Shown: positions 9,793-13,537 of the stretch, one piece after another
How positions within the stretch are numbered: position 1 is the stretch's first letter
How the letters are laid out: each line of letters begins with the position of its first letter
NCBI RefSeq assembly: GCF_000021865.1
Contig: NC_014034.1
Coordinates: forward strand, 1,110,001-1,142,000
Length of the DNA stretch: 32,000 nt
Reading direction: 5' to 3'
From: Rhodobacter capsulatus SB 1003
GTDB taxonomy: Bacteria > Pseudomonadota > Alphaproteobacteria > Rhodobacterales > Rhodobacteraceae
Notes under the pieces: generated by a model
Database searches by the model: none
The model's input: only the letters and a program-made list of their open reading frames with translations
What the model was told of the DNA's origin: nothing
Made by a program: the position numbers and the translations under genes

Positions 9793-10287
9793 ATGAGCAA
9801 GCACGACGACGAGGACGACGACCGGGGCCGGGGGCAGGGCGCTGCGGGCCCGGGGTTCGGGGCGGCGCCGCCGGTGGGGTGGTATTATTTCGGGCCGGAA
9901 CCGCCCTGGGTTTCGGGCTGTGCGCCCGGCTGGGGGCCGCAGGCGGCGGCAGGACAGGCGGGGACAGGACAGGCGGGGGGACCGGGGTTTCAGGGCGGGG
10001 CGCAAGCGGGCCCGCAGCCGCAGCCCGACAACCGCGACCTGATGCAGGCCTTTGACCGGCTGGCGCGGGGCGATGTCTCGGCCGAGACGCTGGGGATGCT
10101 TTTCAACCTGCGCGACCGTGATTTCTGGAAAGGCGCGGTGGCGGGCTCGGCCGTGGCCCTCGCGCTGGCCAATCTGCCCGCGCTCAAGGCGATGTTCGCG
10201 GGCCTGGCCGCACAGGGCTTCGGCATGGGCGCCATGGCGACCCCGCCCGCCGCGGCGAAACCCGCCCCCACCACAGAGGAGAGCTGA
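9793..10287 (+). CDS. Small hypothetical protein (164 aa): acidic N-terminus, Gly/Pro/Trp-rich low-complexity region, hydrophobic Gly/Ala-rich C-terminal half
   Basis: High GC3 in frame. MSKHDDEDDDRGRG..., then GWYYFGPEPPWVSGCAPGWGP and (Q/T)AG repeats, then FWKGAVAGSAVALALANLPALKAMFAGLAAQGFGMGAMA. First gene of the cluster ending in the P-type ATPase. Confidence 0.6.
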   Translation: MSKHDDEDDDRGRGQGAAGPGFGAAPPVGWYYFGPEPPWVSGCAPGWGPQAAAGQAGTGQAGGPGFQGGAQAGPQPQPDNRDLMQAFDRLARGDVSAETLGMLFNLRDRDFWKGAVAGSAVALALANLPALKAMFAGLAAQGFGMGAMATPPAAAKPAPTTEES

Positions 10288-10288
10288 G

Positions 10289-10645
10289 ATGACTTCACAA
10301 CCGAAAGCCGCGCCGCTGATGCCCTCGACCACGCAGATCGTGCGGGCCGGGGTGAACGGCGCCGCGATCACCGGCGCCTGGACCGCAATCAACGAGGGGA
10401 TCCGGGTCCGCAACGGCCAGACCACGACCGATGCGGCGATGCGCGCGACCGCGAGCAGCGCCGCCATCGGCGCCGGGGCGGGGGCGGTGGCGACGCTTGC
10501 CGCGCATCTGGCGCGCAATGCGCCGGTGCTCGGGCTCGTCGCGCTGGCGGCGGGGGTGCTGTACTTCGCCAATTCCAGCCGCAAGCCCGCCCCGGCCGGC
10601 GCCGCCCCCGAAACGACCCCCGAGGATGCGGAGGCCGCGCAATGA
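10289..10645 (+). CDS. Small Gly/Ala-rich membrane protein (118 aa)
   Basis: ATG 10289 lies 1 nt after the previous TGA, with AGAGGAGAG just upstream. It is an internal start in ORF 10052..10645. Hydrophobic segments: GVNGAAITGAWTAI, SSAAIGAGAGAVATLAAHLA, APVLGLVALAAGVLYFA. Confidence 0.65.
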   Translation: MTSQPKAAPLMPSTTQIVRAGVNGAAITGAWTAINEGIRVRNGQTTTDAAMRATASSAAIGAGAGAVATLAAHLARNAPVLGLVALAAGVLYFANSSRKPAPAGAAPETTPEDAEAAQ

Positions 10646-10899
10646 CCGACACCACCTCGCAAACCCCCGCGACTTCGGGCACGGACACCGGCCAGACCGG
10701 TCTTCTGTCGAACCCGCGGTTTCTGACCGGGGCGGTCGTGGGCGGGCTTGTCACCTATGTGCTGACCAACGAGGCGGCGCAGCGCAAGCTGATGGGGGGG
10801 CTTGCCCAGCTTTGGCTTGGGCTGCAGGGCGGGCTCGAGGAGGCGAAGGAACGCTTCCGCGATGCCGAATCCGAGGTGCGCTCGCAGCAGCAGAAGTAA
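10642..10899 (+). CDS. Small YtxH-like membrane-anchored protein (85 aa)
   Basis: ATGA start/stop overlap with the previous gene. One TM segment (FLTGAVVGGLVTYVLT) followed by an amphipathic charged helix (GGLEEAKERFRDAESEVRSQQQK), the layout of YtxH-type proteins. Confidence 0.6.
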   Translation: MTDTTSQTPATSGTDTGQTGLLSNPRFLTGAVVGGLVTYVLTNEAAQRKLMGGLAQLWLGLQGGLEEAKERFRDAESEVRSQQQK

Positions 10900-10920
10900 C
10901 GCCGAAGGGCAGGTGGCCGG

Positions 10921-13062: not shown

Positions 13063-13088
13063 CGCAAAGAGAGGGCCAGGATGCGCTT

Positions 13089-13108
13089 TATAATTCTTGA
13101 CAGAATTA
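13089..13108 (+). promoter_or_regulatory. AT-rich island with TATAAT, TTGACA and a 6-bp-arm palindrome between the ATPase and the HMA-like gene
   Basis: TATAAT at 13089-13094, TTGACA at 13097-13102, and the inverted repeat TAATTC (13091-13096) / GAATTA (13103-13108). It is embedded in otherwise GC-rich DNA. The function (internal promoter, operator or weak terminator) is undetermined. Confidence 0.25.
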
Positions 13109-13150
13109 CTTTGGTTCTGCATCCTTGCCGGACCAAGGACGGAGGCTTTC

Positions 13151-13537
13151 ATGGTCTGCTGCGTGCATCACATCCCCGGCCGCGCCCGTTTCAAGATCGA
13201 GGCGCTGCGCCGCGACGCCGATCTGGCGCAGCGGCTGCATGAAAAGGTGGGGGCGCTGGAAGGCGTGCTGGCGGTGGAGGTGAACCGCGGCGCGGCCTCG
13301 GTGATCGTGCATTACCATGTCGGGCACGGCGAGGTGGGGGCGATCATGGATCATATCTGCGCCCATTGCCCGAAAGCCGCGCTGACCCGCCCGACGGCGC
13401 AGCCCGTCGCGAACCGCACGAGCGCGCCGGTTCTGGGGGCGAAACTCTCGCCCGAGTTCAAGCAGGCGATGACCGTGGCGATGAGCAAGGCGGTGCTGAA
13501 CACCTTCATCACCCGCATCGTCGCCGCCGCGATCTGA
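13151..13537 (+). CDS. Stand-alone HMA-like (HxxPGRxRxK type) domain protein, 128 aa
   Basis: ATG 13151 with GGAGG 5 nt upstream. VHHIPGRARFKIEALRRDADLAQRLHEKVGALEGVLAVEVNRGAASVIVHYH aligns with the ATPase N-terminus HEAPGRLRLKLPWLARPDLDSETLARTVRQIRGVRSVRLNPAAASVIVTHD. Confidence 0.75.
   Translation: MVCCVHHIPGRARFKIEALRRDADLAQRLHEKVGALEGVLAVEVNRGAASVIVHYHVGHGEVGAIMDHICAHCPKAALTRPTAQPVANRTSAPVLGAKLSPEFKQAMTVAMSKAVLNTFITRIVAAAI

Follow-up and report, generated by a model that had tools for sequence, protein, structure and literature searches.

A probable ferrosome (fez) gene cluster of the Rhodobacteraceae type beside siderophore-uptake genes in Rhodobacter capsulatus SB 1003

Ferrosomes are small membrane-bound organelles for iron storage (Grant & Komeili, 2020; Grant et al., 2022). 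The function of the fez genes has been established experimentally in Desulfovibrio magneticus, Shewanella putrefaciens and Rhodopseudomonas palustris (Grant & Komeili, 2020 preprint; Grant et al., 2022), and that of fezAB also in Clostridioides difficile (Pi et al., 2023). Deletion of the R. palustris and S. putrefaciens operons showed that they are required for ferrosomes, and the S. putrefaciens operon was sufficient in Escherichia coli (Grant & Komeili). The ATPase of these loci, FezB, forms subgroup P1B-6, which is recognized by the motifs D[Y/F]SCA in transmembrane helix 4 (TM4) and HNxxT in TM6, while its N-terminal arginine-rich (R-rich) motif, RxR or RxRxR, occurs in related pumps as well and is therefore unspecific (Grant & Komeili, bioRxiv 10.1101/2020.01.10.902569). 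Here we describe five genes, g1 to g5, in a stretch of 32,000 nucleotides of the R. capsulatus SB 1003 chromosome (NC_014034.1, positions 1,110,001 to 1,142,000; hereafter the window), which are probably a ferrosome gene cluster of a subtype that belongs to the Rhodobacteraceae and their relatives.

The five open reading frames (ORFs) lie on the plus strand between positions 9793 and 13537 of the window, co-oriented and closely packed, the distances from g1 to g5 being 1 nt, a 4-nt overlap, 21 nt and 88 nt. They encode, in this order, a protein with a GxxxG segment, a two-helix protein, a second GxxxG protein, a P-type ATPase and a small HMA_2 protein. The same order was found at seven other loci, namely in Celeribacter persicus, Methyloceanibacter stevinii, Rhodovulum sp. 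BSW8, Roseibium aggregatum and a second R. capsulatus lineage and, with small variations, in Marichromatium gracile and Cereibacter sediminicola. All five C. persicus genes (Ga0183454_10767-10771) have been tabulated as fez-cluster proteins, and Paracoccus halophilus and the metagenome-assembled genome (MAG) Rhodobacteraceae bin09 are listed in the FezB group with the motifs DYACPIK/HNGST, their clusters being listed in part (bioRxiv 10.1101/2020.01.10.902569). The clusters of C. persicus, P. halophilus (Ga0125555_100159-100163) and bin09 are orthologous to the window cluster gene for gene and in the same order, with 57-67% identity (62-64% for the g4 orthologues of C. persicus and P. halophilus), and have in common with it the DYACPIK/HNGST motifs and a VCCVHxIPGRARFK protein; they differ in their neighbours, which are FeoAB genes there and siderophore uptake genes in the R. 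capsulatus window. As the orthologues fall into published fez groups, the window cluster contains the component classes of the validated six-gene operons. R. capsulatus was not found in the supplementary tables of bioRxiv 10.1101/2020.01.10.902569, and a literature search returned no paper on ferrosomes or granules in Rhodobacter. The architecture is thus already catalogued for the Rhodobacteraceae and new only for Rhodobacter itself.

The product of g4 matched the P1B heavy-metal ATPase model TIGR01525 with 465 bits and carries an N-terminal Pfam HMA_2 domain at residues 23-81. Its R-rich motif, HEAPGRLRLK (HEAPGRLRLKLP, residues 27-38), lies within the HMA_2 match, the DKTGT motif is at residue 403, and TM6 reads HNGST at 689-693 (H689, N690, T693), in agreement with the HNxxT pattern. 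TM4 contains DYACP, and proteins with DYACPIK or DYACA are counted among the FezB group in Supplementary Table 1 of bioRxiv 10.1101/2020.01.10.902569. In an alignment of 46 sequences of the clade, D358, C361, N668, H689, N690 and T693 were invariant, and among the TM4 motif positions only 360 (S/A/V) and 362 (A/P/S/T) varied. The closest of 120 homologues, from Rhodobacterales and Roseibium (55-67% identity), carry DYACP in nearly all cases, and the next tier (about 55% identity and below), which includes Methyloceanibacter, Chromatiales, Beggiatoa and Desulfovibrio, has DYSCA or DYACA with HNGTT.

As a stand-in for the founding FezB, the fezABC genes of Solidesulfovibrio (Desulfovibrio) magneticus were recovered by a genome scan for the published GxxxG 14-mer of FezA; the sequence is that of a MAG of the same species as strain RS-1, with one of 15 FezC residues different from RS-1. 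The identity of g4 to this FezB was 39% over 588 aa and 37% on a trimmed alignment, on which its identity to E. coli ZntA and CopA was 30-32%. A neighbour-joining (NJ) tree of 78 sequences gathered all D[YF]xC[APST] pumps, g4 and S. magneticus FezB among them, in one clade with a bootstrap value of 94%; CopA and ZntA of E. coli stood outside it, as did the pumps of the DxxTGIR and CPC types. Within the clade the DYACP group had a bootstrap value of 98% and was joined with the Methyloceanibacter DYSCA group at 100%. R. palustris FezB was sought by scanning the back-translated segment HRLPGRIRLRYQ against genome contigs, which gave no match. Together, the motifs and the NJ clade support g4 as a FezB-type (P1B-6) ATPase.

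A first-pass annotation, made by a model from the letters of this DNA, had already called a heavy-metal P-type ATPase here and described the cluster as fez-like, proposing the placement of the ATPase among P1B subgroups as a check. The call agrees with the TIGR01525 and HMA_2 matches, and the ATPase grouped with FezB and not with Cu, Zn or Co exporters. The resemblance itself gained from the motifs, the NJ clade, the published tables and the synteny, and lost its novelty as far as the architecture in Rhodobacteraceae is concerned.

An AlphaFold2 model of g4 (mean predicted local distance difference test score 86.8) showed the N-terminal domain as a small beta-hairpin/helix unit with the R-rich motif in the beta hairpin. 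FezB pumps are described as having six TM helices, without the additional N-terminal pair that other P1B pumps possess. Upstream of the A-domain the model has helices at 113-127, 130-155, 159-172 and 176-208, and four more follow; we read the short N-terminal membrane region as one amphipathic helix and two kinked TM helices, which would give six TM helices in total. M4 is broken or unwound in the model precisely at D358-Y359. The Protein Data Bank holds no FezB structure, and the structures nearest to g4 were CopA, a Cd/Co pump and ZntA.

Small GxxxG proteins next to fezB are a mark of fez clusters, and both g1 and g3 are of this kind. In g1 an acidic, Gly/Pro/Trp-rich head with the motif PPxGWYYFGPEPPW, conserved in the alignment of orthologues, is accompanied by a conserved helix, DLMxAFDRLARG, and by a hydrophobic GxxxG segment (DFWKGAVAGSAVAL; hydrophobic Gly/Ala stretch at residues 115-140 in the hydropathy and GxxxG scan), the GxxxG itself being G114-AVA-G118 inside FWKGAVAGSAVAL. 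The C. persicus orthologue, through which g1 falls into fez GxxxG group 2-3, is 57% identical. The shorter g3 begins with a hydrophobic GxxxG segment (RFLTGAVVGGLVTY; G30-AVV-G34 inside FLTGAVVGGLVTY), which is followed by a charged helix (EEAKERFRDAESE), and its C. persicus orthologue assigns it to group 2-1, the group of RPA2334 and Sputcn32_3194. Its architecture is FezA-like, although the profile match, which is considered below, is weak. The two hydrophobic helices of g2 (27% Ala) are connected by a conserved charged loop, RVRNGxxTTDxA, and g2 belongs to fez 'Group 4', the FezF class, in which its C. persicus orthologue is placed in subgroup 4-9. Neither g1, g2 nor g3 had a significant Pfam or NCBIfam match.

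The last gene, g5, encodes an R-rich HMA_2 protein (VCCVHHIPGRARFK; Pfam HMA_2, E=4e-9) with the motif HHIPGRARFK, as is typical of the R-rich proteins of fez clusters, and with a conserved C-terminal amphipathic segment; through its C. persicus orthologue it falls into fez R-rich group 3-4. With 29% identity to the N-terminus of g4, it represents the N-domain of the pump in free-standing form, and against the N-terminal domain of S. magneticus FezC it reached an hhalign probability of 96.5%. The g5 proteins of Rhodobacterales carry C3C4, H6H7 and C70-A-H-C73, which are absent in the Methyloceanibacter and Marichromatium orthologues and suggest a lineage-specific metal binding.

What the first-pass annotation had said of the accessory proteins held in most respects: the acidic Gly/Pro/Trp-rich head was found on g1, hydrophobic segments are present in all three small proteins (residues 115-140 of g1, two stretches in g2, GAVVG in g3), and the stand-alone HMA-like copy of the ATPase N-domain was recovered in g5 by the HMA_2 match and the identity to g4. 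The profile comparison with FezA and FezC that it had proposed came out positive for g5 against the FezC N-domain and weak for g3 against FezA. Its label of a YtxH-like protein, which concerned g3, was not supported, as hidden Markov model searches with YtxH (PF12732) gave no match for g3 at E up to 0.1 or for two g3 orthologues at E up to 10.

Alignment with the copy in the second R. capsulatus lineage (CP198955; locus L005) delimited a conserved region upstream of g1 with a 15-nt element, a putative -35 hexamer and a -10-like sequence (Table 1). Elsewhere in the window the element recurs solely before the siderophore ABC operon, and in L005 it stands before the divergent fez/feoA region and also in front of an operon for an ABC transporter, close to which lie TonB-receptor and hemP genes. 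A weight matrix was built from four element sites, the pattern having been defined after these sites were seen; its best independent matches lay between g4 and g5 in six fez loci and upstream of the hemP and flavodoxin genes in R. capsulatus. The g4-g5 spacer was the top match in the window outside the training sites, and the equivalent spacer was the best one in L005, L001, L016, L017 and L018. The core of the shared element is AAAACAGTC. As a common AT-rich element, AAAASASTCRRNAWT, it precedes the fez and siderophore ABC operons as well as hemP and flavodoxin, and it is also present in the g4-g5 spacers.

In R. sphaeroides hemP is a proven target of IscR and the Iron-Rhodo-box (PMC4618611). 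The region upstream of g1 is proposed to be an iron-responsive operator and promoter, with a candidate operator of the Iron-Rhodo-box/IscR type, and the spacer element might function as another operator or drive g5 as an internal promoter. By eye, the sequence upstream of g1 showed only half-site resemblances to the classical Fur box, the FNR box (TTGAT-N4-ATCAA) and the iron control element of Irr (TTTAGAA-N3-TTCTAAA), and a strict palindrome scan of the same region gave none. Through the common promoter element, expression of the fez genes is probably tied to the iron regulon.

We compared the cluster with the validated operons, that is, D. magneticus fezABC, Sputcn32_3193-3198, RPA2333-2338 and C. 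difficile fezAB. They have in common with it a FezB-clade pump with R-rich and HNxxT motifs, a GxxxG protein of subgroup 2-1 (g3, with RPA2334 and Sputcn32_3194), a two-helix protein of Group 4 (g2, with RPA2335 and Sputcn32_3195), an R-rich HMA-like protein, neighbouring iron genes and a host that grows anaerobically. They differ in that the window has one R-rich protein (3-4) in place of two (3-1 and 3-2) and no FezC-type membrane domain, in that its second GxxxG protein, which has a long acidic G/P/W-rich head, falls into subgroup 2-3 and not into 2-5, and in that its TM4 motif is DYACP and not D[Y/F]SCA, the pump being 39% identical to S. magneticus FezB.

Membership of the cluster in the fez family rests on the phylogeny of the pump, its motifs, the families of the accessory genes and the synteny, and on these grounds we consider it likely that the R. 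capsulatus genes are a ferrosome cluster of the subtype of Rhodobacteraceae and relatives. Several points weigh against this assignment. D358-Y-A-C361-P departs from the canonical TM4 motif, and as the serine is lost and a proline restores a CPx-like motif, the metal specificity could differ. The tree is distance-based and was anchored on a close relative of D. magneticus RS-1 instead of RS-1 itself, with the FezB proteins of R. palustris and S. putrefaciens absent. The g3 profile matched S. magneticus FezA weakly (E 0.005, probability 7.6%), and g5 is without the C-terminal two-helix membrane domain of FezC. The pump gene is first in S. putrefaciens and R. palustris, whereas here the small genes precede the pump and the R-rich gene follows it. 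The subgroups 2-3, 4-9 and 3-4 are unlike those of the validated operons, and for this subtype, Rhodobacter included, the formation of granules is a prediction. Finally, nickel and cobalt genes nearby (see below) may reflect a general metal island or may hint at the substrate.

If the cluster works as the validated ones do, then under anoxia, for example during photoheterotrophic growth, g1, g2 and g3 would insert into, shape or mark a small intracellular vesicle, and g4 would use ATP to move Fe(II) from the cytoplasm into its lumen, where the iron would precipitate with phosphate. At the cytoplasmic face g5 might serve as iron donor, as regulator or as a partner in assembly or targeting. The stored iron would buffer an excess of Fe(II) and support growth once iron becomes scarce.

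Against such a ferrosome one may set ordinary efflux across the envelope, in which g4, located in the cytoplasmic membrane, would export an excess of Fe(II) or of some other cation into the periplasm without any organelle, g5 would be a cytoplasmic metallochaperone as in the CopZ/CopA pair, and the small proteins would be accessory subunits. All other characterized P1B ATPases are exporters, the best matches among solved structures are the three pumps named above, the automatic labels of the g4 protein read 'P-type Zn(2+) transporter' or 'manganese/zinc-transporting ATPase C', and g5 has the CxxC-like C70-A-H-C73 and N-terminal CC and HH pairs. A P1B ATPase with a small protein that copies its N-terminal domain and bears Cys/His motifs indeed recalls CopA and CopZ, but the g5 domain is HMA_2 with an R-rich hairpin and not the classical CxxC HMA (PF00403 was not significant), the window pump lies outside the CPC clades, and the accessory membrane proteins are without counterpart in that pair. 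Since, moreover, the pump nests inside the FezB clade, the accessory genes all belong to fez-cluster families, including group 2-1 which is common to the validated operons, and an efflux pump would not be expected beside iron-uptake genes or to share their promoter element, we think simple efflux rather unlikely.

Another explanation keeps the vesicle and the pump that fills it, and supposes that the metal stored by the DYACP subtype is not iron but, for example, Co, Ni or Mn. This explanation draws on Pro362, which gives the CPx-like motif, and on the loss of the Ser ligand, a change specific to the Rhodobacterales clade, as well as on the Ni/Co genes (CbiM, a NikKMLQO-like set, NicO) near the cluster in the window, L005, L016 and L017; a 2026 review lists ferrosome-like stores for other metals, along with membrane shaping and iron release, among the open questions on ferrosomes. 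D358, C361, N668, H689, N690 and T693 are nevertheless all kept, the sister Methyloceanibacter clusters with DYSCA have identical accessory genes and adjacent FeoAB, and FeoA or FeoAB adjoins the DYACP clusters themselves in L001, L005 and L016. The shared element, too, stands at iron promoters and is not found upstream of the nik-like operon in L005. Storage of another metal is on this evidence quite improbable, and iron remains the expected cargo of a ferrosome in R. capsulatus.

The five genes are genuine. Each has a GC content at third codon positions (GC3) of 0.84-0.88 in the called frame and, in comparison with the CP198955 copy of R. capsulatus (87% identical), a ratio of non-synonymous to synonymous substitution (dN/dS) of 0.12-0.24 (g1 0.15, g3 0.12), so that all five are under purifying selection. 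The exact g4 sequence occurs on 54 contigs in public data, one of them the R. capsulatus chromosome CP198954.1, whose gene calls give the same five boundaries as here; in public annotation the pump bears the generic name of a heavy-metal or Zn(2+) ATPase, and its four companions are hypothetical. The best start of g5 is the ATG at 13151, which is preceded by GGAGG 7 nt upstream and agrees with public gene calls; it replaces the TTG at 13097 of the first-pass annotation, whose range for the cluster and whose picture of five co-oriented, tightly spaced genes otherwise agree with the ORFs, GC3, dN/dS and the recurring order. That the small ORFs are chance frames beside a single genuine ATPase can be dismissed almost with certainty, for although the genome has 70% GC and many long spurious ORFs, such as one of 1022 aa on the minus strand that spans this very region, and although g1 is partly of low complexity and g1-g3 are without database family, g1-g3 have dN/dS of 0.12-0.21 in addition to their GC3, orthologues with conserved motifs across several genera, and orthologues that are all tabulated as fez-cluster proteins.

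A likeness of g2 to the magnetosome protein MamC emerged from its orthologues, among them L001 5310-5684, L002 5142-5495 and L003 3989-4336. The NCBIfam MamC model (NF038051) did not match g2 itself and matched the orthologues with 16-43 bits (E 4e-11 to 1e-2), the equivalog cutoff being 100 bits; precomputed Pfam PF26373 matches are common on the orthologues, and that of Marichromatium is named "magnetosome protein MamC" by NCBI. A profile of the g2 family (27 sequences) aligned over 84 columns, with an hhalign probability of 93.9%, with a sequence taken to be Magnetospirillum MamC, the conserved family loop RVRNGExTxxEA lining up with the inter-helix loop of that sequence; we regard this as a lead and not as a test. 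A word-indexed search for true magnetotactic MamC sequences retrieved none, and no paper was found that links MamC to fez or ferrosome clusters.

The g2 family and MamC have in common a two-helix hairpin with a charged connecting loop, and they differ in that the hosts of g2 are not magnetotactic and that there is no magnetosome island at this locus. The two-helix family of fez Group 4 is distantly MamC-like; g2, which the MamC model did not match, is to be called MamC-like and not a MamC. One may speculate that the Rhodobacterales subtype is a functionally distinct ferrosome, with a CPx-like DYACP pump and a MamC-like g2 on the vesicle, in which the g2 loop, positionally homologous to the magnetite-interacting loop of MamC, would face the lumen and control mineral nucleation. 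We hold this to be doubtful; if true, it would point to a shared ancestry of the small-membrane-protein toolkits of ferrosomes and magnetosomes, and it could mean that this phototroph, which is open to genetic work, stores a different metal or forms a different mineral phase.

R. capsulatus has long served as a genetic model of anoxygenic photosynthesis, and it reportedly oxidizes Fe(II) in the light under anoxia, possibly as a mechanism of detoxification (Poulain & Newman, 2009). A fez cluster here would add this well-studied phototroph, with the variant of the pump motif that it carries, to a catalogued type and not establish a new kind of system. The compact five-gene module would be an easy system in which to study the DYACP-pump subtype, the roles of the GxxxG and MamC-like proteins and the coupling to the iron regulon, and the identification would correct the generic annotation of the pump and that of four hypothetical genes.

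Table 1. Positions of the fez-type genes, of the putative regulatory sequences and of neighbouring features in the window and in related loci
Feature	Locus	Position	Strand	Length or content	C. persicus counterpart	Published fez group of counterpart
g1	window	9793-10287	+	164 aa	Ga0183454_10767	GxxxG group 2-3
g2	window	10289-10645	+	118 aa	Ga0183454_10768	group 4-9
g3	window	10642-10899	+	85 aa	Ga0183454_10769	GxxxG group 2-1
g4	window	10921-13062	+	713 aa	Ga0183454_10770	FezB group, DYACPIK/HNGST
g5	window	13151-13537	+	128 aa	Ga0183454_10771	R-rich group 3-4
Conserved upstream region	window	9693..9749	+	alignment with CP198955 copy		
15-nt element	window	9703-9717	+	AAAACAGTCGGGAAT		
15-nt element before siderophore ABC operon	window	17423-17437				
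Element sites	L005	8771-8785, 5595-5609, 6682, 8392				
Putative -35	window	9723-9728	+	TTGACC		
-10-like sequence	window	about 9744-9749	+	TATTCA		
g4-g5 spacer element	window	13083..13117	-	palindrome TAATTCT-TGAC-AGAATTA + TTGACA		
ATP-grasp gene	window	13545-14402	-	precomputed Pfam DcsG_N + GSH-S_ATP		
TonB-dependent receptor	window	18479-20605		downstream of fez cluster		
Enterochelin-esterase-like gene	window	20605-22170		downstream of fez cluster		
Ni/Co uptake genes	window	552-1595	-			
Ni/Co uptake genes	L005	13779-17204				
Ni/Co uptake genes	L016	9323-10000				
Ni/Co uptake genes	L017	2724-4264				
Divergent ORF 1	window	1689-5213	-	1174 aa		
Divergent ORF 2	window	5185-6111	-	308 aa		
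Divergent ORF 3	window	6096-7115	-	339 aa		
Divergent ORF 4	window	7129-9393/9501	-	754-790 aa		

On the 3' side the cluster is followed by an operon of FecE, FecCD and periplasmic-binding-protein genes and by an AraC-type regulator, and further downstream by the TonB-dependent receptor and the enterochelin-esterase-like gene, so that the iron-uptake island which the first-pass annotation had placed next to the cluster is indeed there. FeoA or FeoAB adjoins the cluster in five related loci (L001, L002, L004, L005 and L016). The association with iron-homeostasis genes that marks fez clusters is thus present, through siderophore genes here and through Feo in the relatives. The ATP-grasp gene on the opposite strand ends 7 nt from the stop codon of g5, and the beginning of the siderophore ABC operon overlaps with it. 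In four Rhodobacterales loci, genes for Ni/Co uptake (CbiM, a NikKMLQO-like set, DUF1007-NicO) are found no more than a few kb from the cluster.

The similarity in DNA between the window and R. capsulatus CP198955 (87% of nucleotides) is limited to window positions 9680-13537 and L005 positions 8747-12579. This stretch comprises the five genes and 113 nt upstream, and the flanks of the two R. capsulatus lineages are unrelated, so that the five genes and their promoter behave as a self-contained module placed at different sites of the chromosome. The module is flanked by feoA and a NikKMLQO-like operon in CP198955, and by an uncharacterized operon and the siderophore uptake genes in the window. 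Its borders showed neither flanking repeats nor a credible tRNA, and Rfam gave no match there. ARAGORN called an 88-nt tRNA-Arg(gcg) at 20708-20795, inside the enterochelin-esterase-like ORF, which is probably a false positive because no Rfam tRNA match was found.

Divergent from the fez cluster, four consecutive genes occupy the minus strand from 1689 to 9501. None of the four had a Pfam or PADLOC match, and the largest gave the sole NCBIfam match among them, a weak one to a lectin-like family (CV39L, E 3e-8). A large fez-type locus was also seen in a MAG of Desulfovibrio sp. (L004 991-10407), with three P-type ATPases (CPC with HMA_2, DYSCA and DYVCS), five small ORFs, two Fur genes and FeoA/FeoB.

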